From: a bacterium
Lineage (GTDB): Bacteria; UBA8248
Assembly: GCA_965202625.1 (NCBI GenBank)
Contig: CBDBBI010000009.1
Coordinates: forward strand, 1-18,328
Direction of reading: 5' to 3'
Length of the DNA: 18,328 nucleotides
The stretch's first letter is position 1, and each line of letters begins with the position of its first letter. Both the position numbers and the translations under genes were made by a program. Shown here piece after piece: positions 1,808 through 16,875 of the stretch. A model generated the notes under the pieces. The model had not been told where the DNA came from. It made no database searches and was given only the letters and a program-made list of their open reading frames with translations.

Positions 1808-1877
1808 GGGACTATCCCTTTATGCGCTGCACCCTGCAGACAAAGAACAAAATCAAACATGCGGTATATCCGCGCAC

Positions 1878-1905
1878 TTGACAAACACTATATCTTTTGT
1901 AGTAG
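1878..1905 (+). promoter_or_regulatory. Possible sigma70-like promoter for cassette 1
   Basis: Perfect TTGACA at 1878-1883 in an AT-rich intergenic stretch. The -10 match (TAGTAG, 1900-1905, 16-nt spacing) is poor. Confidence 0.3.
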
Positions 1906-2016
1906 CCATGTGATTTCGCGGTGTAGTTTCGCTTTTGGGATTGCGCTCAAATCTTGAAAGACAAAGACGAGCAACGCCAACCTCAATCAGAAAATTGCTG
2001 GCCGGCGAGCGAAAAT

Positions 2017-2439
2017 ATGAACGGCACAGAGAAGGTCATCAAACACCTGGAAATGACCCAAGCCATTATCAACCGTTTGGGCAACAACTCCTTTCTCGTG
2101 AAAAATTGGAGCATGACTGTCATTGTCGCCGCCATAGTCTTGACTGCAAGGAGCGAGATGCTAAACCCGTTTATTGTTCTTCTCCTTATTCCACCCGTTA
2201 TAGGGTTCTGGTGGCTGGACGGATATTTTCTCTGGCAGGAAAGACTTTTCCGGCAAGTATATGACGAGATCAGGGTGCAATCCGATACAGATTTCAAGAT
2301 GGACGTGATGAAACATGGAAACAAACCGAAATGTAGTCGCTCATCCGCTATTTTCTCTCAAACTCTTTTCATTTTTTATTTGGTGGAGTTTTTCTTCATT
2401 TTTCTAGTGTTCGCAATAATTTATTGTGGAGGAGCATGA
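2017..2439 (+). CDS. Small membrane protein with about 3 TM segments, TIR-associated (putative defence effector)
   Basis: KHLEMTQAIINRLGNNSFLVKNWS...FWWLDGYFLWQERLFRQVYDEIR with three hydrophobic segments. AT-rich and directly upstream of the TIR gene. ATG 2017 preferred; the ORF extends to TTG 1954. Confidence 0.75.
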   Translation: MNGTEKVIKHLEMTQAIINRLGNNSFLVKNWSMTVIVAAIVLTARSEMLNPFIVLLLIPPVIGFWWLDGYFLWQERLFRQVYDEIRVQSDTDFKMDVMKHGNKPKCSRSSAIFSQTLFIFYLVEFFFIFLVFAIIYCGGA

Positions 2440-2467
2440 GAATATGGGTGAGATAAGGAAAACCGTC

Positions 2468-2965
2468 ATGCAAAAAAGACAAGTGTTCTACAGTTTTGAC
2501 TATAAGTCAGACAGTTGGCGTGTGGCCCAAGTGCGCAATATAGGCGTTCTTGAGGGAAACAAAACCATAACGGATAACGATTGGGAGGAAGTCAAAAAAG
2601 GCAGCAAAAACGCTATAAAACGATGGATTGACAAGCAAATGGAGTATAGATCTTGCACTGTTGTTTTGGTTGGAACAAATACCGCAGGTAGAGAATGGAT
2701 TGACTATGAAATAATACATTCATGGGAACAGGGTATGGGCGTCGTGGGTATCCATATTCATGGGTTAGAAGATAAGCAAGAATATCGTTCGGGAAAAGGG
2801 CGAAATCCTTTTGATTCTCTGTCTTTCCAAAACGGAAAGAAGTTATCTCATTTGGTCAAATGTTATGATCCAAGAGGAAGTAATAGCAAACAAGTATATG
2901 CCTGGATTTCAACGCATTTATCAAATGTAGTGGAAGAAGCAATCAAGATAAGGAAAACAAATTAA
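2468..2965 (+). CDS. TIR-domain protein, Thoeris ThsB-like (MTH538/DUF1863 type)
   Basis: KRQVFYSFDY..DSWRVAQVRN, DNDWEEVKK, IKRWIDKQM..RSCTVVLVG..TA.R.WIDYEI..SW..G.GVVGIHIHGL; the putative catalytic Glu in WIDYEI is intact. AAGGA at 2455-2459 precedes ATG 2468; the ORF track starts at 2426. Confidence 0.9.
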   Translation: MQKRQVFYSFDYKSDSWRVAQVRNIGVLEGNKTITDNDWEEVKKGSKNAIKRWIDKQMEYRSCTVVLVGTNTAGREWIDYEIIHSWEQGMGVVGIHIHGLEDKQEYRSGKGRNPFDSLSFQNGKKLSHLVKCYDPRGSNSKQVYAWISTHLSNVVEEAIKIRKTN

Positions 2966-3010
2966 GTGAACAAGCCAGCAAAACGTGACAGGGCTTGCGG
3001 TTCACAAACC

Positions 3011-3336
3011 TGCAAACCCCCCCTCAAACCTTCACGCCCCCGATGCCCCATGAGGTGTCCTTCGCCGTGACGAAGACGTAGTCCGCATCGCCCAGAATTT
3101 CGCAGGAATGCACCGCGTTCGCCGGAATGTGGGCGATGTCGCCCGGAGCGAGCGTCCCCGTCTCCTCGCCTATCTTCATGCGCGCGGCACCGAGGCCGCT
3201 CGGCTGGTGCGGCTACCTCCTCGTGCCCCGTTCTGTGGAGTTCTGGCGGCACAGGGACAGCCGCCTCCACGACCGCGTGCGCTACGCCCTGGAGACGGAC
3301 GGCGGCTGGCGGATAGAGCGCCTCGCCCCGTGAGGG
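3011..3336. repeat. Chimeric repeat copy 1: cupin 3' end (minus strand) fused to pdxH 3' end
   Basis: 3024-3192 matches 6775-6943 (cupin 3' end including its stop). 3181-3336 matches 1655-1810 (pdxH 3' end including its stop), and the last 102 bp are identical to 1709-1810. The two halves overlap at CGCGCGG(C/T)ACCG, 3181-3192. Confidence 0.95.
3181..3333 (+). pseudogene. pdxH: pdxH 3'-terminal fragment (about 50 codons)
   Basis: Translates ...[47 protein letters not shown], near-identical to the C-terminus of the intact pdxH; the 5' part of the gene is absent. Confidence 0.85.
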
Positions 3337-3441
3337 GGGGCGGCGCGGCTCATATCCGTATTGAATCCATGACGTGGGTGCCGTAAGCTGGGCGCGCCGC
3401 ATCAGCAGCGACGTCTGGGCACCGGAATGTGAGGTGATGAT

Positions 3442-4974
3442 TTGAGCGATTCGCCTGTGCAAGGCTCCGTCAAGCTCGATGTGAAAAATTTCGGACCCAT
3501 TGCCGATGCCAAAATTGATCTGCGTCCTTTGACCGTGTTCGTGGGACCAAGCAACACGGGCAAATCCTATCTGGCGATTCTGATATATGCCTTGCACCGG
3601 TTTTTCAGTCGTCATCTTGATGGCCTGGGTCTGCCTGGCTTCCGACACTTTCCATTAGGTTACGACCTATTTGTGGACGACGAGGAGAATCAACCCACCA
3701 AGGAAACTTTGGATGAGTTTCTCGACTGGGCGAAGCGGACGTTTGGGGACGAGGAAGCGTTGTCAAATGAGAAAAGCATTCTTATCCCCGATCCCATCGC
3801 AGGTTGGGTTCGTTCAGCGCTCACCAGTCTTGACGCGCGGGGCGGCGATCTCGGCGATGAAATCAGCAGGTGCTTCGGCGTTAACGAGGCAAAAGAATTG
3901 ATTCGGAAAGGGGGAAGTGCCCGGAACCCGCAGGTCGTTCTACGAAGGGGCGTCTCGGACGATGCCGATCCTTTCGTCCAAGAGCTGAGCATCCACGCGA
4001 AAAAGCCCGCGCTCAAGACGACGATTCCCGAAAATATGCCTATACGGCTCAAAACTGATGATCCGTCATTGAGTAAATTCGGCCACTCCTACCGCAGGAT
4101 GATGCCTATGCGGGATGAGGAGCAGGAATTAACGGCCCGGCGGCTGATAGCGAATTTAAGCGACTTCACTGCAAATCAGGTCTTTGGGCAGGTTTTTGGC
4201 CCCCTGCGTCTTCCGGCCTTCTATCTTCCCGCCGACCGTACAGGCGTCATGCACGCCCATCGCGTGGTCGTAAGCGCCTTGATCGAGCGCGCCACCAGGG
4301 CGGGTCTGCATCAGGATACCCCCATTCCCATGCTCTCGGGCGTTCTGGCGGACTTCCTCAAACAACTGATTGCGCTCGACAGTGGGCCGTCTGGGCGCGA
4401 ACCTCAAAACCCTCTCGACAAGGGAATCGAAAAATTCATCCTCGGCGGAGAAGTGAACGTCAAGAAAACGGAAACCGGCTACCCGCGCTTCACCTATCGG
4501 CCGGAGAAATGGGAGGCCGACCTTCCATTGATGAACGCCTCGTCCATGGTGGCGGAACTCGCGCCGGTGGTGCTGTATCTGCGCTACGTGGTGAGACCCG
4601 ACAACGTGCTGATCATTGAGGAACCAGAATCGCACCTGCATCCCGCCATGCAGGTCGAATTCACACGGCAAATCGCGGCGCTCGTCCGCGCGGGCGTTCG
4701 GGTGCTCCTCACGACGCACAGCGAGTGGGTACTGGAAGAACTCGCCAACATCGTGCAGTCATCGAACCTGCCTAAAGATGGCGACGTCGATCTACGACCT
4801 GATGATGTGGGTGTATGGCTATTTCAGCCAAAGAACCGCCCAAGGGGTTCGATCGTGAAGGAAATCCCCCTGGATGATTCGGGGCTTTTCCCGTCTGGTT
4901 TTGATGACGTCGCCGCCGCGCTCCACAATGACTGGGCCGATATTTCCAGCCAGATTGGAGAAGAAAGCGGGTGA
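3442..4974 (+). CDS. ABC-type/AAA ATPase (AAA_15/AAA_21-like, defence-associated)
   Basis: N-terminal VKNFGPI, Walker A GPSNTGKS, LPADRTG, degenerate signature NASSMVAEL, Walker B/D-loop LIIEEPESHLHP and H-loop LLTTHS. GAGGTG at 3431-3436 precedes the TTG start. Confidence 0.9.
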   Translation: MSDSPVQGSVKLDVKNFGPIADAKIDLRPLTVFVGPSNTGKSYLAILIYALHRFFSRHLDGLGLPGFRHFPLGYDLFVDDEENQPTKETLDEFLDWAKRTFGDEEALSNEKSILIPDPIAGWVRSALTSLDARGGDLGDEISRCFGVNEAKELIRKGGSARNPQVVLRRGVSDDADPFVQELSIHAKKPALKTTIPENMPIRLKTDDPSLSKFGHSYRRMMPMRDEEQELTARRLIANLSDFTANQVFGQVFGPLRLPAFYLPADRTGVMHAHRVVVSALIERATRAGLHQDTPIPMLSGVLADFLKQLIALDSGPSGREPQNPLDKGIEKFILGGEVNVKKTETGYPRFTYRPEKWEADLPLMNASSMVAELAPVVLYLRYVVRPDNVLIIEEPESHLHPAMQVEFTRQIAALVRAGVRVLLTTHSEWVLEELANIVQSSNLPKDGDVDLRPDDVGVWLFQPKNRPRGSIVKEIPLDDSGLFPSGFDDVAAALHNDWADISSQIGEESG

Positions 4975-5447
4975 AGGGCCTCGTGGATGCAGTTCGGGCA
5001 GAGGTTTCTCCGCAATGTCTTTCAAGGAATTGCCGCAGGGATGGTTGTGGCGTATCCCTTCAAGGTGCGCCGTCGCCACGCTTGATCATCGATTTTGACA
5101 AACCGGGCTCGCCCCTCGACAAGAATCAGAAACGTCCCGACTACCTGTTCATCGCCGAAAGCGGCAGCGATTCTTCATGGGTCGCGCCGCTGGAACTCAA
5201 GAAAGGTCGGTTGGACGTCAGCCAAGCCATTGCACAACTTCAAGCAGGGGCGCGCGCCGCCGAGGGGGTTGTTCCCGAAAATGCAGCGGTCAAGTTTCGT
5301 CCCGTCGTCGCCCATAAGGGCGTGAGAACATCGGAAATCAGGGCACAGAGGAAAAATGGAAGCGGAAAAATACGTTTCCGCGGGCGAAGTGAAGCCTTAC
5401 GATGGCTCAGATGCGGCTCTAAATTGACCGATAGACTGAGATCATAG
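4971..5447 (+). CDS. Small basic protein with a PD-(D/E)XK nuclease-like motif, partner of the ATPase
   Basis: KRPDYLFIAE...WVAPLELKKG...AIAQLQAG fits PD...ExK. The GTG start overlaps the ATPase stop (GTGA), suggesting translational coupling. Confidence 0.7.
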   Translation: MKGLVDAVRAEVSPQCLSRNCRRDGCGVSLQGAPSPRLIIDFDKPGSPLDKNQKRPDYLFIAESGSDSSWVAPLELKKGRLDVSQAIAQLQAGARAAEGVVPENAAVKFRPVVAHKGVRTSEIRAQRKNGSGKIRFRGRSEALRWLRCGSKLTDRLRS

Positions 5448-5484
5448 GGAAAATGAATCCGCCAACGAAAATCTGAGAGCGGAG

Positions 5485-5708
5485 TGCAAACCCCCCTCAA
5501 ACCTTCACGCCCCCGATGCCCCATGAGGTATCCTTCGCCGTGACGAAGACGTAGTCCGCATCGCCGAGAATTTCGCAGGAATGCACCGCGTTCGCCGGAA
5601 TGTGGGCGATGTCGCCCGGAGCGAGCGTCCCCGTCTCCTCGCCTATCTTCATGCGCGCGGCACCGAGGCCGCCGGGTTGGGGCGGCTACCTCCTCGTGTC
5701 CCGTTCGG
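5485..5708. repeat. Chimeric repeat copy 2: cupin 3' end fused to a truncated pdxH fragment
   Basis: 5497-5665 matches 6775-6943 and 5654-5708 matches 1655-1709. Has the same CGCGCGGCACCG junction as copy 1 and the same TGCAAACCCCCC(C)TCAAAC left edge. Confidence 0.95.
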
Positions 5709-5820
5709 GAGCCGCTGGGCTTGAACGTTACGATGGAGCGCGCCAAAGAGGTCAAGGTAGAGCGGGCATCAGAGGTGAGATAGAATAGGAATATGATTTT
5801 GCAATAAAGGAGATAGCATA

Positions 5821-6759
5821 TTGCCGATCTTTGATACCTTTTCGAGACGAAAACGCCGAGCCGAACAAACAGAAGCCGACGTGTATCAATACGATGATAT
5901 CCCCGAAAAACTGCGATTTCAGGTGTGTCGCATCTTCAGCAATTCAATCGGAGCTTACAGGGCATATGAGCAATTTGATCAGAATAATGCACTTTGGCAT
6001 AACATTGCTGAAACGGTGGCGCAGGAGTTAGGTCGGAGAACACTTGCTGATGGAAATGACCCGAAAGAGGATTGTCTCTATTTTTTGCAACAAGAGCAGA
6101 ATACCGACCATTGGCTGGACTTGGTGGAAATCTCAGCATTAGCTATCGACAAAATTTGCCGAGGCCCAAAATACGATGAATATTTTCGGGAGCGCAAGGG
6201 CATCACGCAAACAGCGGACGACGCAATACAAGAACTGAATTTTCGATTCAAAGAAGCAAGGCTTGGTTATCGGTATGAGAATGGTCAGATCATTCAGATT
6301 GACAACGACCTGCTCCATGCCGAAGTCACGAAACCCGCCCTTCAACTGTTATCCGATCCCCGCTTCAAGGGGGCGGAAGAAGAGTTCCGAGAAGCGCACG
6401 AGCATTACCGCGTTCACAAATATGAAGATTGCATTACGAACGCGCTCAAAGCGTTCGAGAGCACGCTGAAAACGATCTGCGACTTGAAAGAATGGGAATA
6501 CTCAAAAAAATCTACAGCTTCTAATTTACTAAAAATAGTTTTTAGAGAAAAATTAGTCCCCGACTATCTAGACAATTCGTTCACACAGTTAGCCGCAACG
6601 TTGCAGTCGGGCCTGCCAAAGGTGCGCAACGAAGCGGGCGGTCATGGACAAGGCACAGGTCTTCGAGAAACACCCGATTACATCGCCGCTTACGCCCTAC
6701 ACCTAGCCGCAGCCAAGATCGTGCTCTTGGTTCGTGCGATGCAAGCAACCGAAAAATAG
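5821..6759 (+). CDS. Abortive-infection-like protein: AbiJ-type N-terminal domain plus C-terminal HEPN/Abi_C-like domain (STM4504/CBY_0614-like)
   Basis: N-terminal IFDTFSRR...DVYQYDDIPEKLRFQV, central AIQELNFRFKEARLGYRYENGQII, and C-terminal GAEEEFREAHEHYR...ALKAFESTLKTIC...RNEAGGHGQG (R-x5-H). AAGGAG at 5807-5812; lower GC than the flanks. Confidence 0.8.
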   Translation: MPIFDTFSRRKRRAEQTEADVYQYDDIPEKLRFQVCRIFSNSIGAYRAYEQFDQNNALWHNIAETVAQELGRRTLADGNDPKEDCLYFLQQEQNTDHWLDLVEISALAIDKICRGPKYDEYFRERKGITQTADDAIQELNFRFKEARLGYRYENGQIIQIDNDLLHAEVTKPALQLLSDPRFKGAEEEFREAHEHYRVHKYEDCITNALKAFESTLKTICDLKEWEYSKKSTASNLLKIVFREKLVPDYLDNSFTQLAATLQSGLPKVRNEAGGHGQGTGLRETPDYIAAYALHLAAAKIVLLVRAMQATEK

Positions 6760-6774
6760 TGAGATCCTCCCCCC

Positions 6775-7515
6775 TCACGCCTTCACGCCCCCGATGCCCC
6801 ATGAGGTATCCTTCGCCGTGACGAAGACGTAGTCCGCATCGCCCAGAATTTCGCAGGAATGCACCGCGTTCGCCGGAATGTGGGCGATGTCGCCCAGGGC
6901 GAGCGTCCCCGTCTCCTCGCCTATATTCATGCGCGCGGCACCGCTCAGGACGATCGCAAATTGCTCGTTGGGGTGGGAGTGGGCCTCGGCGCGTCCTCCC
7001 GCGGGAATCCGCATCTTCCCAAAGATGACGCGCGCACCCGTCACCCACGCCCCCTCGGTCGGGCTGTAGGTCTCGCCCGCCAGCTCCTTGTCCATCGCCT
7101 CGGTGTCATAGAAATAGGGGATGCGCCCCGCACCCCCGCTTTCCCCGCGCCCGGCGGCACGCCCCATCTCGGCGGGCGTTCCCTCAATGCCCGCGGCCGT
7201 GTCCTTCGCCACGATGAACTCATAATCCGCATCGTCCAGCACCTCGGCCTCGTGCACGGCACCAGCGGGCCGGTAGGCGATGTGGCCGGGCGTGAGAACC
7301 CCGCTCTCGCCCTCCACGTTCAGGCGGACGCTTCCGGCGAGGCAGTAGCCGAACTGCTCGTTCGGGTGGGAGTGCGCGCTTGAGCGCGTGCCGGCGGGCA
7401 TCCGCATCTTGCCGAAAATGATCCGCTCCCCCCGCACCCACGCCCCCTCGGTCGGGCTGTATGCCGCCCCCGCAAGGTTCTTCTCCATCTCGCTCGTCCT
7501 GTAGAAACAAGGCAT
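6775..7515 (-). CDS. Bi-cupin protein (two tandem cupin domains)
   Basis: Two copies of YSPTEGAWV.G.R.IFGKMR.PAG.R..AHSHPNEQF...L.G and G.IA..PA.AVH (cupin motifs 1 and 2). ATG 7515 has an upstream GAGGGAG; the ORF track extends to 7644. Confidence 0.88.
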   Translation of the reverse strand: MPCFYRTSEMEKNLAGAAYSPTEGAWVRGERIIFGKMRMPAGTRSSAHSHPNEQFGYCLAGSVRLNVEGESGVLTPGHIAYRPAGAVHEAEVLDDADYEFIVAKDTAAGIEGTPAEMGRAAGRGESGGAGRIPYFYDTEAMDKELAGETYSPTEGAWVTGARVIFGKMRIPAGGRAEAHSHPNEQFAIVLSGAARMNIGEETGTLALGDIAHIPANAVHSCEILGDADYVFVTAKDTSWGIGGVKA

Positions 7516-7808
7516 CGCGCTCCCTCTCTTTCTTGAAAGATGGCGTCCACTCCGCGCCTGGCGCCATAATTTCCCGAAACCGCGCGGCGACAGAGGGACT
7601 ATCGCGCATCCGCGCGGGTCGGGCAAGTTTCGGGCGGTACCCAAGGGGTGCGGCGATGCGGGCGCATTGCATACCCCCTGTTTTCGCTATACATTCACAC
7701 CGCCTCTCTTATGACGTGAAACCAGGGATTCTTCATGGACGCCGGCGGGAAAGCCGTGTTCCCCGCGCGCGCGTCCAGCACACAGCGAACAGAAAAGGAG
7801 ACGACGCG

Positions 7809-8468
7809 ATGATGCGAACCAGCGACGAGATACCCTACAGCGAGCACAACGCGCGCCGAATGCGGCGGGCCTGGACGTGGCGCGAGCAGAGCAGGAAAGC
7901 CGGGTCGGACGAGGAGAAATTCCTTTTTCTGTGGATCGCCTTCAACGCGGCCTACGGCGATGAGCCGACGGGCAGATACGAAGACGCTCCCACCGAGAGC
8001 ATGAAGATCACCGAATTTCTACGGGAGATCATCAAGCGCGATGCGGGGGAAACGATAAGAACCATTCTCTGGGAGACGTATTCGGGGCCGATTCGCATTC
8101 TTCTGGAGAATCACTACGTCTTCAGGCCGTTCTGGCAATACGTGCGCGGCGAGCCTATGGGAGAGGGGTGGCGCAGGCGCTTCGAATCCAGAAAAGAGCG
8201 CACGAGAAGGTCCATCGGAACCGGAGACGTGCACGCCGTGTTCAGGGAAGTGTTCGGGCGGCTGTATCAACTGCGCAACCAGGTGTTCCACGGAGGCGTG
8301 ACTTTCGGCGAAGGATGGGGCCGGACCCAGCTCAGGGATGGTGCCCGCATCATGGAGAAAATCGTTCCGGCGATTCTCGACGTCATGCAGGCCGACATCG
8401 AGAAAAACCCCGACTCGGAGGTTTGGGGAAAAGTCGCCTATCCCCGAGTCGGCGAGAGTCCCTCTTAG
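7809..8468 (+). CDS. HEPN-domain protein (Apea-like)
   Basis: FLFLWIAFNAAYG and LYQLRNQVFHGG (R-x4-H HEPN motif). AAGGAG at 7795-7800 precedes ATG 7809/7812; the longer 7461 start overlaps the divergent cupin gene and is unlikely. Confidence 0.8.
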   Translation: MMRTSDEIPYSEHNARRMRRAWTWREQSRKAGSDEEKFLFLWIAFNAAYGDEPTGRYEDAPTESMKITEFLREIIKRDAGETIRTILWETYSGPIRILLENHYVFRPFWQYVRGEPMGEGWRRRFESRKERTRRSIGTGDVHAVFREVFGRLYQLRNQVFHGGVTFGEGWGRTQLRDGARIMEKIVPAILDVMQADIEKNPDSEVWGKVAYPRVGESPS

Positions 8469-8540
8469 GACGCCGGCGCATCACTCGCCGAAGACGATGC
8501 TTTGTCGTTGCGAAACAAACAACCAAAAAGGAGAAAAAAG

Positions 8541-10046
8541 GTGAAGAAACGCATGGGGACGTTTTCAGCAGTGCTTTTTCTGTTGCTCGCCCTTGCACCA
8601 TCCGCGCCCGCTCTGGCGGCGCAGGTCTCGTGCAAAGAGTGGAACACTCGGACGTTCTTCAAGCGCGCTTCGGCGGCGGACGTCTCCCGCTGTCTGAAGG
8701 CCGGAGCGAACGTGAACGCGCGGGACAAGGACAGATGGACGCCCTTGCACATGGCGGCGGGGTTCAATACGCCCGGTGGCGCGGCCGCGCTCATCAAGGC
8801 CGGAGCGGACGTGAACGCGCGGAACAAATGGGGATTGACGCCCCTGCACCTGGCGGCGGCACAGTTCAGCAAGACGCCCGGTGTCGTAGCAGTGCTCCTG
8901 AAGGCCGGAGCGGACGTGAACGCGCAGGACGAGAAGGGAAGGACGCCCCTGCACCTGGCGGCGCAGTTCAGCAAGACGCCCGGTGTCGTGGCAGCGCTCG
9001 TAAAGGCTGGAGCGGACGTGAACGCGCGGAACGAGGTCGGAGCGACGCCCCTGCACCTGGCGGCGGCATTCAGCGAAACGCCCGGTGTCGTAGCGACGCT
9101 ACTGAAGGCCGGAGCGGACCTGAACGCGCGAACCAAGGACGGAGCGACGCCCCTGCACCTGGCGGCGACGAAAAGCGAGACGCCCGGTGTCGTAGCGGCA
9201 CTCGCGAGAGCCGGAGCGGACCTGAACGCGCGGAGTGAGGACGGATGGACGCCCCTACACGCGGCGGCGGCGCAAAGCAAAACGCCCGGTGTCGTGGCGG
9301 CGCTCCTGAAGGCCGGAGCGGACGCGAACGCGCGGGGCAAGGACGGATGGACGCCCCTGCACGCGGCGGCGGTGTTCAGCAAGACGCCCGAAGTCGTGGG
9401 CGTGCTCCTGAAAGCCGGAGCGAACGTGAACGCGCGGGACGAGGACGGATGGACGCCCCTGCACGCGGCGGCGCAGAACAGCAAGACGCCCGGTGTCGTG
9501 GCGGCGCTCCTGAAGGCCGGAGCGGACGCGAACGCGCGGGGCAAGGACGGATGGACGCCCCTGCACTTGGCGGCGGAGAACAAGACGCCCGGTGTCGTGG
9601 CGACGCTCCTGAAGGCCGGAGCGGACCTGAACGCGCGGGACGAGGACGGATGGACGCCCCTGCACGCGGCGGCGCAGAACAGCAAGACGCCCGGTGTCGT
9701 AGCGGTGCTCGTAAAAGCCGGATCAGACCTGAATGCGCGGGACACTAAATACGGATGGACGTCTCTGCACTGGGCGGCGGCATTCAGCCAGACCCCCGAA
9801 GTCATGGCGACGCTCCTGAAGGCCGGAGCGGACGTGAACACGCGGGACGAGGACGGAGCGACGCCCCTGCACTGGGCGGCGGGGCTTAACAAAACGCCAG
9901 GTGTCGTGGAGGCCTTGCTGAAGGCCGGAGCGAACCCGGCGGCAAAAGACAAAGAAGGCAAAACGCCGTGGGATTACGCGAAAGAAAACGCCGCGCTCAA
10001 GGGAACGAAAGTCTATTGGCGACTGAACGAGGGGAGGTTCAAATAA
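8541..10046 (+). CDS. Secreted ankyrin-repeat protein ANK1 (signal peptide, Cys-pair N-cap, 12 repeats, C-cap)
   Basis: AAGGAG RBS and GTG start; (M)KKRMGTFSAVLFLLLALAPSAPALA-AQ signal; 12 NAR.x.GxTPLHxAA...TPGVVAxLLKAGAD repeats; GKTPWDYAKENAALKGTKVYWRLNEGRFK cap. Confidence 0.93.
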   Translation: MKKRMGTFSAVLFLLLALAPSAPALAAQVSCKEWNTRTFFKRASAADVSRCLKAGANVNARDKDRWTPLHMAAGFNTPGGAAALIKAGADVNARNKWGLTPLHLAAAQFSKTPGVVAVLLKAGADVNAQDEKGRTPLHLAAQFSKTPGVVAALVKAGADVNARNEVGATPLHLAAAFSETPGVVATLLKAGADLNARTKDGATPLHLAATKSETPGVVAALARAGADLNARSEDGWTPLHAAAAQSKTPGVVAALLKAGADANARGKDGWTPLHAAAVFSKTPEVVGVLLKAGANVNARDEDGWTPLHAAAQNSKTPGVVAALLKAGADANARGKDGWTPLHLAAENKTPGVVATLLKAGADLNARDEDGWTPLHAAAQNSKTPGVVAVLVKAGSDLNARDTKYGWTSLHWAAAFSQTPEVMATLLKAGADVNTRDEDGATPLHWAAGLNKTPGVVEALLKAGANPAAKDKEGKTPWDYAKENAALKGTKVYWRLNEGRFK

Positions 10047-10194
10047 AGCGAGCCTCGCAAGGAGGGCGCCGCAGACGCCTTTGCGAATGCGATTCCTCTC
10101 CCCCCCGCCCGGCGGTTTCATGGTGCTGGCGCATCGCCCGCGGGAGACGATGCTTTGTCGTTGCGAAACAACCAACCAAAAAGGAGCCAAAAAG

Positions 10195-12321
10195 ATGAAG
10201 AAACGCATGGGGACGTTTTCAGCAGTGCTTTTTCTGTGCCTCGCCCTTGCACCATTCGCGCCCGCTCTGGCGGCGCAGGTCTCGTGCAAAGAGTGGAACA
10301 CCTGGGTGTTCTTCAAGCGCGCCGGCGCGGCGAACGTTTCCCGCTGCCTGAAGGCCGGAGCAAACGTGAACGCACGGAATGAGTACGGAACAACGCCCCT
10401 GCACCAGGCGGCGGAGCACAGCAAGACGCCCGGTGTCGTAGCGACGCTCCTGAAAGCCGGAGCAGACGTGAACGCGCGGGGTCAGCTTAGAAAGACGCCC
10501 CTGCACACAGCGGCGCCCTGGAATACACCCGAAGTCGTGACGACGCTCCTGAAGGCCGGAGCGGACGTGAACGCGCGGAACGAGTTCAGATGGACGCCTC
10601 TGCACGCGGCGGCACAGTTCAGCAAGACGCCCGGTGTCGTGGCAGCGCTCGTAAAGGCTGGAGCGGACGTGAACGCGCGGGACAAGTACGGAACAACGCC
10701 CCTGCACATGGCGGCACAGTTCAGCGAGACGCCCGGTGTCGTGGCGGCTTTGCTGGATGCCGGAGCAAACCCGGCGTTAGAAGACAGAGAAGGCAAAACG
10801 CCGTGGGATCATGCGAAAAACAACGCCGCCCTTGAGGGGACGGACGTCTATGGGCGGCTGAAAGAGCGGTTCAATGTTCTGGCGGCGCGGATCTCATGCG
10901 AAAAATGGAACACTGGGCTGTTTTTCAGGCGCGCTACCGTGGCGGACGTTTCTCGTTGTATTGCGGCCGGAGCGGATGTGAACGCGCGGGTTAAGGGCTA
11001 TGGAACGACACCCCTGCACTGGGCGGCACAGTGGAACAAAACGCCCGGAGTCGTGGCGGCTCTCCTGGACGCCGGAGCGAGCGTGAGCGCGCGGACCAAG
11101 GACGGAATAACACCCCTGCACCTAGCAGCGACGCACAGCAAGACGCCCGGTGTCGTAGCAGTGCTCGTAAATTCCGGAGCGGACCTAAACGCGCGAGATA
11201 TTAAATACCGAACAACGCCCCTGCACGCGGCGGCGCGGCACAGCACGCCCGATGTCGTGGCGGCTCTCCTGAAGGCCAGGGCGGACGTGAACGCGCGGGG
11301 CAGGTCCGGATGGACGCCTCTGCACGCGGCGGCAGGGTTCAGCAAGACGCCCGAAGTTATAGACGCTCTCCTGAAGGCCGGAGCGGACGTGAACGCGCAG
11401 GACGAGAAGGGAGAGACGCCCCTGCATACGGCGGGGAGTTTTGGGTTCAGCAAAATGCCCGAAGTCGTGGCCGCGCTCGTAAAGGCTGGAGCGGACGTGA
11501 ACGCGCGGGACAAGAAGGGAGGGACGCCCCTGCACACGGCGGCACAGTGGAGCAAGACCCCCGAAGTCGTGGCGGCGCTCGTGAAGGGCGGGGCGAACGT
11601 GAACGCGCGGGACAAGAAGGGATTTACGCCCCTACACAGGGCGGCGATGTTCAGCGAGACGCCCGGTGTCGTAGCGGCACTCGCGAGAGCCGGAGCGGAC
11701 ATGAACGCGCGGACCGAGAACGGAGGGACGCCCCTGCACTACGCGGCGGCGAAGAGCAAGACACCCGGTATCGTAGCGGTGCTCCTGAAAGCCGGAGCGG
11801 ACGTGAACGCGCGGGCCGAGGACGGATTGACGCCCTTGCACGCGGCGGCGTTGAACAGCAAGACGCCCGGTGTCGTGGCCGCTTTGCTGGACGCCGGCGC
11901 AGATATGAACACGCGGGACGAGGACGGAGCGACGCCCCTGCACTACGCGGCGGCGAAGAGCAAGACACCCGGTATCGTAGCGGTGCTCCTGAAAGCCGGA
12001 GCGGACGTGAACGCGCGGGCCGAGGACGGATTGACGCCCTTGCACGCGGCGGCGTTGAACAGCAAGACGCCCGGTGTCGTGGCCGCGCTCGTAAAGGCCG
12101 GAGCGAAGCTGGACGCGCGGACCGACTTCGGATGGACGCCCCTGCACGTCGCGGCGGGGTTCAGCAAGACGCCCTCTGTCGTGAAGGCTTTGCTGGATGC
12201 CGGCGCTAATCTGGCGACAAAAAGCAAAGCAGGCAAAACGCCGTGGGATTACGCGCAAAAAAACGCCGCCCTCAAGGGAACGAAAGTCTATTGGCTGCTG
12301 AACGATGCGCGGTTCAAATAA
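10195..12321 (+). CDS. Secreted ankyrin-repeat protein ANK2, in-frame fusion of two units (4 + 12 repeats)
   Basis: Signal peptide, N-cap, 4 repeats, internal C-cap (GKTPWDHAKNNAALEGTDVYGRLKERF), second N-cap (ISCEKWNT...SRCIAAG), 12 repeats and terminal cap. Confidence 0.93.
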   Translation: MKKRMGTFSAVLFLCLALAPFAPALAAQVSCKEWNTWVFFKRAGAANVSRCLKAGANVNARNEYGTTPLHQAAEHSKTPGVVATLLKAGADVNARGQLRKTPLHTAAPWNTPEVVTTLLKAGADVNARNEFRWTPLHAAAQFSKTPGVVAALVKAGADVNARDKYGTTPLHMAAQFSETPGVVAALLDAGANPALEDREGKTPWDHAKNNAALEGTDVYGRLKERFNVLAARISCEKWNTGLFFRRATVADVSRCIAAGADVNARVKGYGTTPLHWAAQWNKTPGVVAALLDAGASVSARTKDGITPLHLAATHSKTPGVVAVLVNSGADLNARDIKYRTTPLHAAARHSTPDVVAALLKARADVNARGRSGWTPLHAAAGFSKTPEVIDALLKAGADVNAQDEKGETPLHTAGSFGFSKMPEVVAALVKAGADVNARDKKGGTPLHTAAQWSKTPEVVAALVKGGANVNARDKKGFTPLHRAAMFSETPGVVAALARAGADMNARTENGGTPLHYAAAKSKTPGIVAVLLKAGADVNARAEDGLTPLHAAALNSKTPGVVAALLDAGADMNTRDEDGATPLHYAAAKSKTPGIVAVLLKAGADVNARAEDGLTPLHAAALNSKTPGVVAALVKAGAKLDARTDFGWTPLHVAAGFSKTPSVVKALLDAGANLATKSKAGKTPWDYAQKNAALKGTKVYWLLNDARFK
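11727..12086 (+). repeat. Recent internal duplication in ANK2 (156 bp identical, 204-bp period)
   Basis: 11727-11882 is identical to 11931-12086 (TPLHYAAAKSKTPGIV...NARAEDGLTPLHAAALNSKTPGVVA). Confidence 0.85.
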
Positions 12322-12567
12322 AGGGCGCAGCGTAGCCGGACAAAAACATTGCATGGCCCTGGAAAAGCCGTTTTTCGGGGCGTGAAGGGCATTGCAAAAG
12401 CCGTTCAAAGCAGGGCGTCACGCGTGATGGAACCGCAGACGCCTTTGCAAATGCGATATTTCGCATTCTCTCCCATTCGTCGGGGTTTGGCTGGACCGGC
12501 GCATCGCCCGCCGAAGACGATGCTTTGTCGTTGCGAAAGAAACAAACAACCAAAAAGGAGCAAAAAG
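12322..12567 (+). repeat. Long-type intergenic repeat of the ankyrin array (also 16068-16335 and partial 16876-16995)
   Basis: AGGGCGCAG.GTAGCCGGACAAAAACATTGCATGGCC...AAAAGCCGTTCAA.GCAGGGCGTC follows ANK2, ANK6 and ANK7. A medium type follows ANK1 and ANK4 (10047-10194, 13836-13986) and a short type follows ANK3 and ANK5 (12976-13034, 14881-14939). Confidence 0.85.
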
Positions 12568-12975
12568 ATGAAGAAACGCATGGGGACGCCCCTGCACTTG
12601 GCGGCGGTGAAAAGCAAGACGCCCAGTGTCGTGGCAGCGCTCCTGAAAGCCGGAGCGGACGTGAATGCGCGGGACAAGTACGGAATAACACCCCTGCACC
12701 TAGCAGCGCGGTTCAGCAAGACGCCCGGTGTCATAGCGGCTCTCCTGAAGGCCGGAGCAGACGTGAACGCGCGGACCAAGAGGAAAGTGACGCCCCTGCA
12801 CATGGCAGCGTGGGGCGGCAAGACCCCTGAAGTCGTGGCGGTGCTCCTGAAAGCCGGCGCAAACCCGGCGGCAAAAGACCAAACAGGCAAAACGCCGTGG
12901 GATTACGCGAAAGAAAACGCCGCCCTCAAGGGAACAAAAGTCTATTGGCGGCTGAACGAGGGGCGGTTCAAATAA
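12568..12975 (+). CDS. Ankyrin-repeat protein ANK3 lacking signal peptide and N-cap (3 repeats plus C-cap)
   Basis: Same RBS and leader as its paralogs, then MKKRMGT joined directly to PLHLAAVKSK; frame intact to the shared C-cap. Confidence 0.85.
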   Translation: MKKRMGTPLHLAAVKSKTPSVVAALLKAGADVNARDKYGITPLHLAARFSKTPGVIAALLKAGADVNARTKRKVTPLHMAAWGGKTPEVVAVLLKAGANPAAKDQTGKTPWDYAKENAALKGTKVYWRLNEGRFK

Positions 12976-13034
12976 AGGGCGCCTTGAGACGATGCGATGG
13001 CGTTGAGAGCAAGCAACAAAAGAGGAGCAAAAAG

Positions 13035-13835
13035 ATGAAGAAACGCATGGGGACGTTTTCAGCAGTGCTTTTTCTGTTGCTCGCCCTTGCACCATCCGCG
13101 CCCGCTCTGGCGGCGCAGATCTCGTGCGGAGTATGGAACACTGAGGCGTTCTTCGAGCGCGCCTCGGAGGAGGACGTTTCCCGCTGTCTGAAGGCCGGAG
13201 CGGACCTGAACGCGCGGGATACTATGTACGGATGGACGCCCCTGCACCTGGCGGCGATGCACAGCAAGACGCCCGTTGTCGTGACCGCGCTCGTAAAGGC
13301 CGGAGCGGACGTGAACGCGCGGGACTTTGACGAAATGACGCCCCTGCACTACGCGGCGCGGTTCAGCAAGACGCCCGTTGTCGTGACCACGCTCGTAAAG
13401 GCCGGAGCGGACCTGAACGCGCGGAGTAATAGTCTATACGGAGAGACGCCCCTGCACCTGGCGGCGGAGTTCAGCGAGACGCTCGGTGTCGTGGAGGCAC
13501 TTCTGAAGGCCGGAGCGGACGTGAACGCGCGGAACGCGAAGGGATTGACGCCCCTGTACGCGGCGGTGGGGTCCAGCAAGACGCCCGGTGTCGTGGCCGC
13601 GCTCGTAAAGGCCGGAGCGGACGTGAACGCGGGGGATACTAAATACGGATGGACGTCCCTGCACTCGGCGGCGCAAAGCAAGACGCCCGGTGTCGTGGCG
13701 GCTTTGCTGGACGCCGGAGCGAACCCGGCGGCAGAAGACAATGCAGGCAACACGCCATGGGATTACGCGAAAGGAAACGCCGCCCTCAAGGGAACGAAAG
13801 TCTATTGGCGGCTGAACGAGGGGAGGTTCAAATAA
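13035..13835 (+). CDS. Secreted ankyrin-repeat protein ANK4 (5 repeats)
   Basis: GAGGAG RBS, signal peptide, ISCGVWNTEAFFERA N-cap, 5 repeats and C-cap. Confidence 0.92.
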   Translation: MKKRMGTFSAVLFLLLALAPSAPALAAQISCGVWNTEAFFERASEEDVSRCLKAGADLNARDTMYGWTPLHLAAMHSKTPVVVTALVKAGADVNARDFDEMTPLHYAARFSKTPVVVTTLVKAGADLNARSNSLYGETPLHLAAEFSETLGVVEALLKAGADVNARNAKGLTPLYAAVGSSKTPGVVAALVKAGADVNAGDTKYGWTSLHSAAQSKTPGVVAALLDAGANPAAEDNAGNTPWDYAKGNAALKGTKVYWRLNEGRFK

Positions 13836-13986
13836 AGCACGCCTCGCAAGGAGGGCACCGCAGACGTCTTTGCAAATCCGATATTTCGCATTCTCTCCCA
13901 TTCGTCGGGGGTTTTGAAGGGGCCGGCGCATCGCCGGGAATGAGGCGATGACCTTGAGAAGCAAACAAACAAAAAGGAGCAAAAAG

Positions 13987-14880
13987 ATGAGGAAACGCAT
14001 GGGGACGTTTTCGGCGGCGCTTTTTCTGTTGCTCGCCCTTGGGCCATCCGCGCCCGCTCTGGCAGCGCAGATCTCGTGCGGAGTATGGAACACTGAGGCG
14101 TTCTTCGAGCGCGCCGGCGCGGCGGACGTTTCCCGCTGTCTTGCGGCCGGAGCGAACGTGAACGCGCGGGGCCAGATTAGAGAGACGCCCCTGCACCTGG
14201 CGGCGGCGAAAAGCAAAACGCCCGAAGTCGTGACGACGCTCCTGAAGGCCGGCGCGAACGTGAACGCGCGGAACGAGTTCGGATGGACACCCCTGCACAC
14301 GGCGGCAAAGTGGAGCAAGACCCCCGAAGTCGTGACGACGCTCGTAAAAGACGGAGCGGACGTGAACGCGCGGAACGAGTTCAGATGGACACCCTTGCAC
14401 GCGGCGGCACAGTGGAGCAAGACCCCCGAAGTCGTGGCGGTGCTCGTGAAGGGCGGGGCGAACGTGAACGCGCGGAACGAGATCGGATGGACGCCCCTGC
14501 ACGCGGCGGCAGGGTTCAGCGAGACGCCCGGTGTCGCGGCAGTGCTCGTCAACGCCGGAGCGGACCTGAACGCGCGGGACGAATGGGGAGAGACGCCCCT
14601 GCACTACGCGGCGGCGCACAGCAAGACGCACGGAGTTATAGCGGCTCTCCTGAAAGCCGGAGCAGACGTGAACGCGCGGAACGAGAAGGGATGGACGCCC
14701 CTGCACACGGCGGCGGAGTTCAGCCAAACACCCGGTGTCGTAGCGGCTTTGCTGGACGCCGGAGGGGACCCGGCGGCAAAAGACAAAACAGGCAAAACGC
14801 CGTGGAATTACGCGAAAGAAAACGCCGCCCTCAAGGGAGGGGACGCCTATTGGCGGCTGAACGATGCGCGGTTCAAATAA
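13987..14880 (+). CDS. Secreted ankyrin-repeat protein ANK5 (6 repeats)
   Basis: AAGGAG RBS, MRKRMGTFSAALFLLLALGPSAPALA signal, N-cap start shared with ANK4, 6 repeats and C-cap. Confidence 0.92.
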   Translation: MRKRMGTFSAALFLLLALGPSAPALAAQISCGVWNTEAFFERAGAADVSRCLAAGANVNARGQIRETPLHLAAAKSKTPEVVTTLLKAGANVNARNEFGWTPLHTAAKWSKTPEVVTTLVKDGADVNARNEFRWTPLHAAAQWSKTPEVVAVLVKGGANVNARNEIGWTPLHAAAGFSETPGVAAVLVNAGADLNARDEWGETPLHYAAAHSKTHGVIAALLKAGADVNARNEKGWTPLHTAAEFSQTPGVVAALLDAGGDPAAKDKTGKTPWNYAKENAALKGGDAYWRLNDARFK

Positions 14881-14939
14881 AGCGCTCCTTGAGGCGATGC
14901 GATGACGTTAAGAACAAACAACCAAGGAGGAGCAAAAAA

Positions 14940-16067
14940 ATGAAGAAACGCACGGGGACGTTTTCAGCAGTGCTTTTTCTTTTGCTCGCCCTAATGGTCG
15001 GCTGTGCTGCACCCCCTCGGGCGACGCAGCTCCCTCTGGCGGCACAGGTCTGGTGCGAAGGATGGAACACCAAGGCGTTCTTCGAGCGCGCTTCGGCGGC
15101 GGACGTTTCCCGCTGCCTGGAGACCGGAGCGAACGTGAACGCGCGGGACGAGAACGAATTGACGCCCCTGCACACGGCAGCGGTGTTCAGCAGGACGCCC
15201 GAAGTCGTAGCCGCGCTCGTGAACGCCGGAGCGGACGTGAACGCGCGGGCCAAGAGGGGATTGACACCCCTGCACGCGGCAGCGGTGTTCAGCAGGACGC
15301 CCGAAGTCGTGGCAGTGCTCGTGAACGCCGGAGCGGACGTGAACGCGCGCAGCGAGGATGGATGGACGCCCCTGCACGCGGCAGCGGCGAAAAGCAAGAC
15401 GCCCGGTGTCGTGGCAGCACTCGTGAAGGCCGGAGCGGACACGAACGCGCGGGACGAGAAGGGAATGACGCCCCTGTACACGGCGGTGATAGTCAGCCAG
15501 ACGCCCGAAGTCGTGGAGGCTTTGCTGGACGCCGGAGTGGACGTGAACGCGCGGGCCAAGGGCAGAATGACGCCCCTGCACCTGGCGGCGGGGTTCAGCA
15601 AGACGCCTGAAGTCGTGGCAATGCTCGTGAACGCCGGAGCAAACGTGAACGCGCGAAACGAGGATGGATGGACGCCCTTGCATGCGGCGGCGTTGAAAAG
15701 CAAGACGCCGGGTGTCGTAGCGGTTCTCGCGAGAGCCGGAGCGGACGTGAACGCGCGAAACGAGAATGGATTCACGCCCCTGCACGCGGCGGCGGCGGCG
15801 AACAGCAAGACGCCCGGTGTCGTGGCAGCACTCGTGAAGGCTGGAGCAGACGTGAACGCGCGGGGAACTAAATACGGAATGACGCCCCTGCACCTGGCGG
15901 CGGCGAACAGCAAGACGCCCGAAATCATAGCGGCTTTGCTGGATGCCGGAGCGAACCCGACGGCAAAAACCCAAGCAGGCAAAACGCCGTGGGATTACGC
16001 GAAAGAAAACGCCGCGCTCAAGGAAACGAAAGTCTATCGGCGGCTGAATGATGCGCGGTTCAAATAA
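14940..16067 (+). CDS. Ankyrin-repeat lipoprotein ANK6 (8 repeats)
   Basis: GGAGGAG RBS; MKKRTGTFSAVLFLLLALMVG-C lipobox-like Cys22; N-cap, 8 repeats and C-cap. The ORF-track start at 14283 is off-frame read-through from within ANK5. Confidence 0.9.
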   Translation: MKKRTGTFSAVLFLLLALMVGCAAPPRATQLPLAAQVWCEGWNTKAFFERASAADVSRCLETGANVNARDENELTPLHTAAVFSRTPEVVAALVNAGADVNARAKRGLTPLHAAAVFSRTPEVVAVLVNAGADVNARSEDGWTPLHAAAAKSKTPGVVAALVKAGADTNARDEKGMTPLYTAVIVSQTPEVVEALLDAGVDVNARAKGRMTPLHLAAGFSKTPEVVAMLVNAGANVNARNEDGWTPLHAAALKSKTPGVVAVLARAGADVNARNENGFTPLHAAAAANSKTPGVVAALVKAGADVNARGTKYGMTPLHLAAANSKTPEIIAALLDAGANPTAKTQAGKTPWDYAKENAALKETKVYRRLNDARFK

Positions 16068-16335
16068 AGGGCGCAGTGTAGCCGGACAAAAACATTGCAT
16101 GGCCTGGAAAAGCCGTTTTTCGGGGCGTGAACGGCTTGTGAAACGGCCTTGAAAGGGCGTTGCAAAAGCCGTTCAAAGCAGGGCGTCACGCGTGATGGAA
16201 CCGCAGACGCCTTTGCGAATGCGATATTTCGCATCCTCTCTCCCGTTCGGCGGGGTGTTTGGATAGCGCCGGCGCATCGCCCGCCGGAGGCGAGGCGATG
16301 ACGTGAAGAGCAAGCAACAAAAGAGGAGCAAAAAG

Positions 16336-16875
16336 ATGAAGAAACGCATGGGGGAGCAGGTCTCATGCGAAGAATGGAACACAGAAGCATTCTTCAAGCA
16401 CGCTTCGGCGGCCGACGTTGCCCGCTGCCTTGCTGCCGGAGCGGACGTGAACGCACGGGGCAAGGCCGGATGGACGCCTCTGCACTGGGCGGCGGAGCAA
16501 AGCGAGACGCCCGAGGTCGTAGCCGCGCTCCTGAAAGCCGGAGCGAACGTGAACGCACGGGACAAGAATGGATGGACACCCCTGCACCGGGCGGCGAGGT
16601 TCAACCAGACGCCCGGTGTCGTAGCGGCACTTGTAAAGGCCGGAGCGGACCTGAACGCGCGGGATACTAAATACGGAGAGACGCCCCTGCACACGGCGGC
16701 ACTCAGCGAGACGCCCGGTGTCGTGGCAGCGCTCCTGAAAGCCGGAGCGGACGTGAACGCACGGGACGAATGGGGAATGACGCCACTGCACGCGGCGGAG
16801 GAGTGGAACAAGACTCCCGGAGTTATAGCGGTGCTCCTGAAGGCCGGAGCGAAGGTGGACGCGCGGTTCAGATAA
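16336..16875 (+). CDS. Ankyrin-repeat protein ANK7 lacking signal h-region and C-cap (4 repeats)
   Basis: MKKRMGEQVSCEEWNT (hydrophobic core deleted), 4 repeats, and ends AKVDARFR* without the TPWDY cap. Confidence 0.85.
   Translation: MKKRMGEQVSCEEWNTEAFFKHASAADVARCLAAGADVNARGKAGWTPLHWAAEQSETPEVVAALLKAGANVNARDKNGWTPLHRAARFNQTPGVVAALVKAGADLNARDTKYGETPLHTAALSETPGVVAALLKAGADVNARDEWGMTPLHAAEEWNKTPGVIAVLLKAGAKVDARFR

Follow-up and report, generated by a model that had tools for sequence, protein, structure and literature searches.

Ankyrin-repeat proteins occur in many copies per genome in sponge-associated bacteria of several phyla, where they are thought to bind host proteins. Such eukaryote-like ankyrin proteins (ELPs) have been reported from sponge symbionts and from their phages (Nguyen et al. 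2014, Reynolds & Thomas 2016 and Jahn et al. 2019, cited in PMC13747020), and ankyrin and other eukaryote-like proteins of the symbionts alter phagocytosis and let the bacteria escape it, according to an excerpt of the same paper (PMC13747020). Ankyrin (ANK), TPR and WD repeats with high internal conservation (HIC), that is, more than 85% identity between repeats over at least 100 residues, are known from fungal NOD-like receptors (NLRs), as described in the excerpted text of Dyrka et al. 2014 (PMC4986451). Here we describe a tandem array of seven ankyrin genes, g1 to g7, identified by an open-frame survey and Pfam. The genes are all on the + strand, at positions 8541–16875 of an 18,328-nucleotide stretch of bacterial DNA, which is called the window and is the whole of contig CBDBBI010000009.1 of assembly GCA_965202625.1. 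The array probably encodes an exported repertoire of ankyrin binders that would act on host proteins.

The locus is like the ELPs of sponge symbionts in the traits listed above. However, it differs from ELPs at large because it belongs to a subfamily with an N-terminal cap (N-cap) of the form Cys-x2-W-N-T-x2-F-F ... Cys and a C-terminal cap (C-cap) of the form TPWDY...LKGT..Y.RL..RFK, and because it combines tandem genes, a homogenised 34-residue framework, site-specific variation and structural differences between strains. Our literature searches returned no published account of these features, among them the hypervariable sites, the caps and the polymorphism between strains, in ankyrin arrays of sponge symbionts, which is not proof that none exists, and the supplementary tables of papers on sponge metagenome-assembled genomes (MAGs) may already list these genes as ELPs. 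In its evolutionary mode, the array appears to find its closest parallel in the HIC repeats of fungal NLRs, as far as the excerpted text describes them. Those repeats are likewise unusually alike, are polymorphic in number and arrangement between strains, and diversify in the germline by recombination among repeats and loci. About five of their concave-face positions, in the beta-hairpin and the inner helix, vary with signs of positive selection, and similar sites vary in the array. In contrast to the fungal HIC repeats, the repeats of the array have a mean identity of 66% (78% in the framework), which is below the 85% criterion, and the diversity is distributed across many genes instead of among alleles of one gene. 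Furthermore, the proteins of the array are bacterial, exported and stand-alone, and have no NACHT or NB-ARC domain, since Pfam detects only ankyrin families in them.

The seven genes encode 54 repeats with TPLH-type cores, which are distributed from g1 to g7 as 12, 16 (4 + 12), 3, 5, 6, 8 and 4. The repeat unit is 33–36 residues long, mostly 34, and has a period of 102 nucleotides in the DNA. The entropy among the 54 repeats at ankyrin positions 1, 2, 3, 5, 10, 13 and 14 is 2.42, 1.97, 3.09, 2.98, 2.70, 3.35 and 2.59 bits, respectively, whereas all the other well-occupied columns have at most 1.70 bits. The seven high-entropy positions map to the beta-turn and helix 1. The genome contains 91 further repeats with the same scaffold across five chromosomal loci, and the corresponding values for the 137 unique repeats of the whole genome are 2.40, 1.95, 3.12, 3.19, 3.33, 3.32 and 3.15 bits. 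Aromatic residues make up 19.2% of the residues at the variable positions (Trp alone 8.8%), compared to 0.2% in the framework; position 5 is Trp in 43 of 137 repeats, and position 14 is Phe in 42 of 134. A preliminary description of the window had placed the variation in the beta-turn and helix 1, rather than evenly along the repeat, and had called it rich in aromatic and charged residues; both statements agree with the entropies of 2.0–3.4 against at most 1.7 bits and with the content of aromatics. In contrast to the framework, the variable sites are only 20% identical between repeats, and the best single pair of repeats is 91% identical. Repeats from one gene are no more alike than repeats from different genes (identity of 0.663 within and 0.659 between genes). 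In two ordinary bacterial ankyrin proteins, the repeats are 37–43% identical. The most similar pair of 300-nucleotide blocks in the array has 88% nucleotide identity.

The engineered ankyrin library ANK-N5C is randomised at positions 2, 3, 5, 10 and 13 (plus 33), which were chosen as the high-entropy sites of natural repeats that form the binding surface, according to the excerpted source (PMC4308713). All five of these positions fall among the seven columns with the highest entropy in the array. In designed ankyrin repeat proteins (DARPins), the randomised positions are 2, 3, 5, 13, 14 and 33. The proteins of the array share with DARPins and ANK-N5C the succession of an N-cap, internal repeats with an identical framework, and a C-cap, and the variation at positions 2, 3, 5, 10, 13 and 14, judged from the excerpts of both sources (PMC8683736, PMC4308713). 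Unlike DARPins, they are natural and have a 34-residue repeat, with one extra residue in the inter-helix loop by our own count. Their caps are unrelated in sequence to the caps derived from GABP, their N-cap carries two cysteines, and the rules of Gly-free and Pro-free randomisation do not apply to them. The variable sites had previously been equated with the positions of engineered libraries. This is correct for positions 2, 3, 5, 10, 13 and 14, but position 33 of the array is a nearly invariant arginine (50 of 54 repeats), and position 1 is variable as well. The variable positions are the usual contact positions of ankyrin repeats, yet natural repeats generally vary there, and variability alone is not unusual. 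Less usual are the tight framework, the lack of gene-specific repeats, and the residue composition of the variable sites.

The rates of nonsynonymous (dN) and synonymous (dS) substitution differ between the two classes of sites. Nei–Gojobori estimates for all pairs of repeats in the window gave a dN of 0.93 and a dS of 0.63 in the variable columns, compared to a dN of 0.14 and a dS of 0.32 in the framework. Parsimony reconstruction on a FastTree phylogeny of the 137 repeats gave, for positions 1, 3, 5, 10, 13 and 14, a dN that exceeds the mean synonymous rate by a factor of 2.0–3.0, whereas this factor is near 1 for position 2 and far below 1 for most framework sites. The ratio of the two rates (omega) for the set of positions defined a priori by ANK-N5C (2, 3, 5, 10 and 13) is 2.27 relative to the dS of all sites, but only 1.29 relative to the dS of the same codons, in which multiple hits inflate the synonymous counts when the codons evolve fast; the framework has an omega of 0.57. 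By these two measures of dN/dS, which the preliminary description had proposed as a check over the aligned repeats, the positions change 1.3–2.3 times as fast as synonymous sites. Evolution at the groove positions proceeds at or above the neutral rate, with a bias towards aromatic and charged residues. This pattern suggests, but does not prove, that diverse binding surfaces are selected for.

Structure prediction supports the interpretation of the proteins as capped ankyrin solenoids, in line with their earlier description as DARPin-like. All seven proteins match only ankyrin families of Pfam, with E-values from 5.7e-26 to 1.2e-152, which is far beyond chance, and each of them scores 89.6–497 bits with Ank or Ank_2 (cut-offs 21.1 and 27.3). 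The AlphaFold2 model of g5, calculated with 20 relatives in the alignment, has a mean predicted local distance difference test score (pLDDT) of 92.3. Residues 30–297 of the model form one confident helical solenoid with paired helices in each repeat and both caps included, whereas residues 1–29, which constitute the signal peptide, have low confidence. A Foldseek comparison of the model to the PDB identified DARPins and ankyrin-1 as the best matches, with a template modelling (TM) score of 0.75 and root-mean-square deviations of 2.1–2.7. The top match is DARPin 6mol_A (42% identity, TM 0.75), and the sequence search agrees with the fold search in ranking DARPins and ankyrin-1 first. In an alignment of 21 proteins from several sources, both cysteines of the N-cap are conserved without exception; they likely form an extracytoplasmic disulphide. 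Neither cap has a Pfam or NCBIfam model, and no NCBIfam family scores above its cut-off for g5. PADLOC matched only generic ankyrin-containing models (PDC-M72A, Ankyrin and MzaA) to the repeats of g5, and we do not read these matches as membership in a defence system. The type IV-secreted Dot/Icm Ank effectors of Legionella and Coxiella, which act on eukaryotic hosts, are also bacterial ankyrin proteins. However, all the NCBIfam T4SS_Ank* models score far below their cut-offs for the proteins of the array, the best being T4SS_AnkY with 111.3 bits against a cut-off of 600. The Legionella and Coxiella effectors lack a Sec signal and combine ankyrin repeats with other domains.

The starts of the seven genes are fixed by a common 18-nucleotide start region and by a GGAG sequence located 7–8 nucleotides upstream of each start codon. 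An intact gene encodes, in this order, a basic N-terminus, a hydrophobic core, an ALA-type cleavage motif, the N-cap (Q-V-S-C-x-x-W-N-T-x-x-F-F-x-R-A-x-x-x-D-V-S-R-C), the repeats, and the C-cap (G-K-T-P-W-D-Y-A-K-E-N-A-A-L-K-G-T-K-V-Y-W-R-L-N-E-G-R-F-K). Gene g1 (8541–10046, 501 residues, GTG start) comprises a signal peptide, the N-cap with two cysteines, 12 repeats, and the C-cap. Gene g2 (10195–12321, 708 residues) contains two modules in one frame, of which the first has a signal peptide, N-cap, four repeats, and a shortened C-cap, and the second has an N-cap, 12 repeats, and a C-cap. A signal peptide and both caps are also present in g4 (13035–13835, 266 residues) and g5 (13987–14880, 297 residues), which have five and six repeats, respectively. 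The signal peptides of g1, g2, g4 and g5 consist of the hydrophobic core followed by the ALA-type motif, whereas g6 (14940–16067, 375 residues), with an N-cap, eight repeats, and a C-cap, has a lipoprotein-like signal in which the lipobox-like sequence LALMVGC takes the place of the cleavage motif. The truncated gene g3 (12568–12975, 135 residues) retains three repeats and the C-cap, and its start region MKKRMGT is fused straight onto the PLH of a repeat, so that it has neither a signal nor an N-cap. Gene g7 (16336–16875) has an N-cap and four repeats, ends in DARFR without a C-cap, and has lost the hydrophobic core of its signal (MKKRMGEQVSC). Both g3 and g7 were truncated by recombination.

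The preliminary description had listed seven genes with 54 repeats of 33–36 residues, and its counts and motifs were reproduced. Its statement that dedicated caps bracket the repeats applies to five of the seven genes. The array has seven N-caps with two cysteines, in six genes (two of them in g2, none in g3), and C-caps in g1 to g6 (two in g2), but not in g7. The proteins had also been described collectively as exported; a Sec or lipoprotein signal is kept in five of the seven genes and is missing from g3 and g7, and since no secretin was found, the exported proteins may be periplasmic. A cassette of 210 nucleotides that includes the leader, signal and N-cap (8516–8725, + strand) recurs at the head of g1, g2, g4, g5 and g6 with 60–90% identity. 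An intergenic element of about 250 nucleotides is present on the + strand in two full copies (12322–12567 and 16068–16335) and in partial copies before g2 and g5. It includes a short GC hairpin with a T run after it, and its 3' end is the common leader with the ribosome-binding site. The element may carry a promoter that was duplicated along with each gene. Promoter and terminator models, which are uninformative for this phylum, gave no sigma-70-like sites and six terminator-like sites, compared to 13.7 expected from shuffled sequences.

The assembly of 3.09 Mb consists of one 2.92-Mb contig (C10) and nine small contigs (C1–C9), of which C9 is the window. Seven of the nine small contigs are collinear with regions of C10, with 84–99.8% identity. 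Only about 1.9 kb of C3 matches the chromosome, and for C4 there is no match of at least 1.5 kb. The seven collinear contigs appear to be haplotigs of co-occurring strains, which fits the contamination estimate of 4.69%. Contig C9 is collinear with positions 2473814–2490606 of C10 on the opposite strand, and contigs from a public sequencing run reach past both ends of the window without a mismatch. Because of this collinearity, which C9 shares with other small contigs, and because of the run contigs that extend both ends, we think it most likely that C9 represents this locus in a strain that co-occurs with the one of C10.

The flanks of C9 and C10 are 95.5%, 93.0% and 92.4% identical, whereas the segment from inside g4 to the third repeat of g7 (13160–16752) contains only four differences, corresponding to 99.9% identity. 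The first approximately 450 nucleotides of g1 align to the C10 haplotype with 93% identity. The region of g1–g3 spans 4 kb in the window, but only 2.1 kb in C10, where it contains one two-module gene. When the 30 repeats of g1–g3 were compared to the C10 form, their best matches to any repeat had nucleotide identities of only 0.78–0.91; g1–g3 are thus different genes, not a reshuffled set of the same cassettes. At the 3' end, C10 carries a longer version of g7 plus an additional gene. The g7 of the window is a deletion fusion of these two (1.2 kb), and its last repeat is derived from the final gene of the longer array in C10. The comparison of arrays among strains had been put forward as a critical one, and the array is not invariant in this pair: g1–g3 are replaced, and g7 is fused. 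It would therefore vary between strains by gene content and recombination, as judged from a single pair of haplotypes. The higher identity of the shared part of the array than of the flanks suggests that this part was recently exchanged between the strains. Many joints inside the ankyrin region were observed in four short-read runs, but their source may be the four other ankyrin loci or different organisms, and they were not used as evidence of rearrangement.

A profile of the 35-residue N-cap has 25 matches in the assembly (18 in C10 and seven in C9). It matches 17 of 18 genomes of the same genus, with 1–14 matches in each, and two of 12 genomes outside the family. Among 1.84 billion representative clusters, 1,675 match the profile at E <= 0.001 and 259 at E <= 1e-10. 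The N-cap motif is present in 59 of the best 120 homologs of g5, and 20 of them contain more than one N-cap. The same capped family was found in MAG proteins of several phyla, including cyanobacterial MAGs, among the 20 homologs examined, and loci with the same caps occur in MAGs labelled Alphaproteobacteria and Gemmatimonadetes. One locus from a MAG labelled Alphaproteobacteria (L008, positions 4480–12782) is an independent array of six or more tandem ankyrin genes with caps and signals, which have their own homogenised framework (GHAEAIGALLDAGADPGAR) and the same variable positions. Framework signatures of their own are present in the congeners of the analysed genome as well, in which TPA stands in place of the TPG or TPE of this genome. 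Such lineage-specific signatures, together with a framework that is 78% identical across genes, require homogenisation or very recent expansion. No ankyrin gene is located in the 17 kb next to the M24 peptidase gene in five of five genomes of the same genus. In four of the five, the other flanking genes also align, and the gap at the site of the array is 309–850 nucleotides. Because the array is absent from this locus in the five congeners, it appears to have arisen by a young expansion, specific to this lineage, within a family that is old and widespread. Elsewhere in the genome, at about 988.4–989.5 kb of C10 (locus L002, positions 2431–3456, + strand), there is a family member with two repeats and the lipobox LTGC, which has a long low-complexity tail of RQRERIKQRERA repeats followed by GEATGTGEA repeats.

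The RecA of this genome, which is 99.7% complete, is 88–90% identical to proteins from MAGs named Nitrospinota or Nitrospinae. The first named relatives of the ankyrin gene come from Alphaproteobacteria MAGs, but these were dropped as possible kin of the organism, and the phylum was read from the named relatives of RecA. Nine public runs contain sequence words of the window, and no RNA run is among them. Four runs from one study contain 51–78% of the sampled words, and two runs from a second study, labelled sponge metagenome, contain 12–18%. The sponge-metagenome runs contain pieces of the window flanks with 0–19 differences per approximately 300–700 nucleotides. The organism is a sponge-associated bacterium, the sponge label being that of the run records themselves.

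The flanks of the array encode PNPOx, defence genes, a cupin, a protein of unknown family, and an M24 peptidase, but no toxin domain. A strain-variable defence island is located directly upstream of the array (1810–6770). It includes a gene for a ThsB-type TIR protein in a low-GC patch (2426–2965, PADLOC 6e-70), a gene for a PD-T4-4_A-like AAA_15 ATPase (3442–4974) that is overlapped by a small open reading frame (4971–5447), and an AbiJ/PDC-S32-like gene (5821–6759). No ThsA partner was seen. Positions 5666–6768 of the window are not present in the C10 haplotype, and one public-run contig joins position 1808 to 3360 and thus omits the ThsB gene. The last open reading frame before the array (7461–8468, + strand) has no match in Pfam, NCBIfam or PADLOC. 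It contains a HEPN-type R-x4-H motif (RNQVFH) and is conserved in the same place, with 67–73% nucleotide identity, in four congeners. NCBIfam gave no match for three flanking open reading frames, and Pfam and PADLOC scans detected no recombinase family among the flanking open reading frames of the window that were scanned.

Based on these results, a mechanism of diversification and export can be proposed. The array would be a recently expanded, lineage-specific cluster of Sec-exported, capped ankyrin-repeat binders. Recombination between the 102-nucleotide repeats and between the genes would result in duplication, deletion, fusion, and the loss of signals or caps. In the beta-turn and helix 1, the residues of some six surface positions would be replaced at or above the neutral rate, with a preference for Trp, Phe, Tyr and charged residues, while purifying selection would hold the framework, which is equally alike within and between genes. 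The RVT_1 family of reverse transcriptases has no match in the genome, whereas control genomes gave matches. The lack of a reverse transcriptase excludes a retroelement mutator and places the diversification in the germline, where it appears to be ordinary paralogy combined with recombination. The preliminary description had called the proteins similar to antibodies or to variable lymphocyte receptors (VLRs). This comparison implies a machine for assembly or mutation and goes too far, given that the genome has no reverse transcriptase and the scans of flanking open reading frames gave no recombinase family. Neither a secretin (PF00263) nor a type VI sheath protein (PF05943) was found in the genome, whereas BamA/Omp85 is present. 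The combination of a Sec signal with the absence of a secretin indicates that the proteins are delivered to the periplasm or, for g6, to a membrane. Their most likely role is that of a repertoire of protein binders where the bacterium meets its host, in agreement with the ELPs of sponge symbionts that alter phagocytosis, and we assign a probability of roughly 60% to the reading that the array is an exported repertoire of ankyrin binders acting on host proteins.

Several observations weigh against this reading. Contact with host proteins would need a further step, such as vesicles, lysis, or attack in the phagosome. One paralog, located at about 1168.7–1170.9 kb of C10 (locus L004, positions 1234–3363, − strand), has a signal peptide, an N-cap, eight repeats, a C-cap, and PG_binding_1 and Trypsin_2 domains, which points to work inside the envelope. 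Genes g3 and g7, which have no export signals, are possibly dead remnants. Between the strains, the shared part of the array has 99.9% identity, compared to flanks that differ by 5–7%, and therefore point-mutational hypervariability between the strains is not seen. The contig of the window comes from a metagenome assembly of repeats and could be partly chimeric; an assembly chimera would give the same picture as strain polymorphism. The evidence for selection is limited as well. Omega at the variable sites is 1.2–1.4 relative to the same-codon dS, and in a per-site binomial test 10 (p = 2e-5) and 5 (p = 0.04) are the only variable positions to pass, together with framework column 48 (Val/Leu/Pro/Ala, near the end of helix 2; p = 5.5e-5). 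The underlying tree of 102-nucleotide units is weak, and the evident recombination breaks its assumptions.

The leading alternative, which we consider possible but clearly less probable, is that the array provides protection in the periplasm, where its proteins would bind and neutralise incoming foreign proteins or pass them on to proteases, in the manner of a poly-immunity locus. The candidate targets would be host lysozymes and other lytic factors, competitor toxins, and phage proteins. The Sec or lipoprotein signals in a genome without a secretin agree with this function, the two conserved cysteines of the N-cap suit an oxidising compartment, and one paralog is a fusion of ankyrin repeats to PG_binding_1 and Trypsin_2. 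The array also adjoins the strain-variable defence island with ThsB, the PD-T4-4_A-like ATPase, and the AbiJ-like gene. We take the Tox-AHH nuclease toxin to act in the cytoplasm. Imm-ank immunity proteins are known from poly-immunity loci, but in the excerpted source they are recorded beside the nuclease toxin domain Tox-AHH (PMC3482391), whereas the proteins described here are exported. Unlike the Imm-ank genes of polymorphic toxin systems, the array has no toxin domain beside it or toxin gene elsewhere in the window, and no type VI sheath gene was found in the genome. Furthermore, no cognate partner gene adjoins any of the family members examined. The occurrence of the capped family in MAGs of several phyla, some of which we take from their names to be sponge-derived bins, fits a host-related role at least as well.

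We speculate, as a rather improbable extension of these ideas, that the approximately 140 repeats at five loci form a germline cassette pool, which is recombined at the time scale of strain divergence into exported binders of foreign proteins in the envelope. Their targets would be host lytic factors, phage proteins, and the toxins of competitors, and one member is already joined to a periplasmic protease. If such a pool exists, it would be a bacterial, extracytoplasmic counterpart of the recognition diversity of fungal NLRs or VLRs.

Slightly more doubtful still is the explanation that the genes are ordinary ankyrin paralogs, produced by young tandem duplication, with the framework under purifying selection and the variable sites drifting without any repertoire function. 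Natural ankyrin repeats in general are most variable at these very positions, according to the excerpt of PMC4308713. The low omega relative to the same-codon dS, the decayed appearance of g3 and g7, and the near invariance of the shared array part between the two strains also speak for this explanation. However, drift would not yield 8.8% Trp and 19.2% aromatics at the variable sites, and the dN at six of these sites is two to three times the mean synonymous rate. The family is retained in 17 of 18 congeners and has expanded to 25 N-caps in this genome, and the framework is 78% identical across genes with signatures specific to the lineage. Neutral paralogy is disfavoured because of the aromatic bias and the retention of the family. 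Targeted hypermutation by a diversity-generating retroelement or a comparable machine, for which the sole argument is that a few hypervariable codons lie in a fixed scaffold, is rejected and looks already refuted: the genome has no RVT_1 match, there is no pair of template and variable repeats, the variable codons differ among 137 germline copies and not between one template and one target, and the strains have only four differences in 3.6 kb of shared array.

Among the "eukaryote-like" features of sponge symbionts, ankyrin proteins are the best known, but so far they have mostly been counted and little dissected. The locus described here defines a subfamily with its own caps, which is present in many metagenome proteins and in which diversity is organised like that of an engineered library of binders. 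The co-occurring strains would differ in whole genes and products of recombination, not in point mutations. The export of the proteins by the Sec pathway in a genome without a secretin raises the puzzle of where they act. The array offers naturally stable ankyrin scaffolds, putatively capped by a disulphide, for comparison with designed ones, and it yields testable candidates for the proteins with which a symbiont may meet the proteins of its host or of foreign origin.

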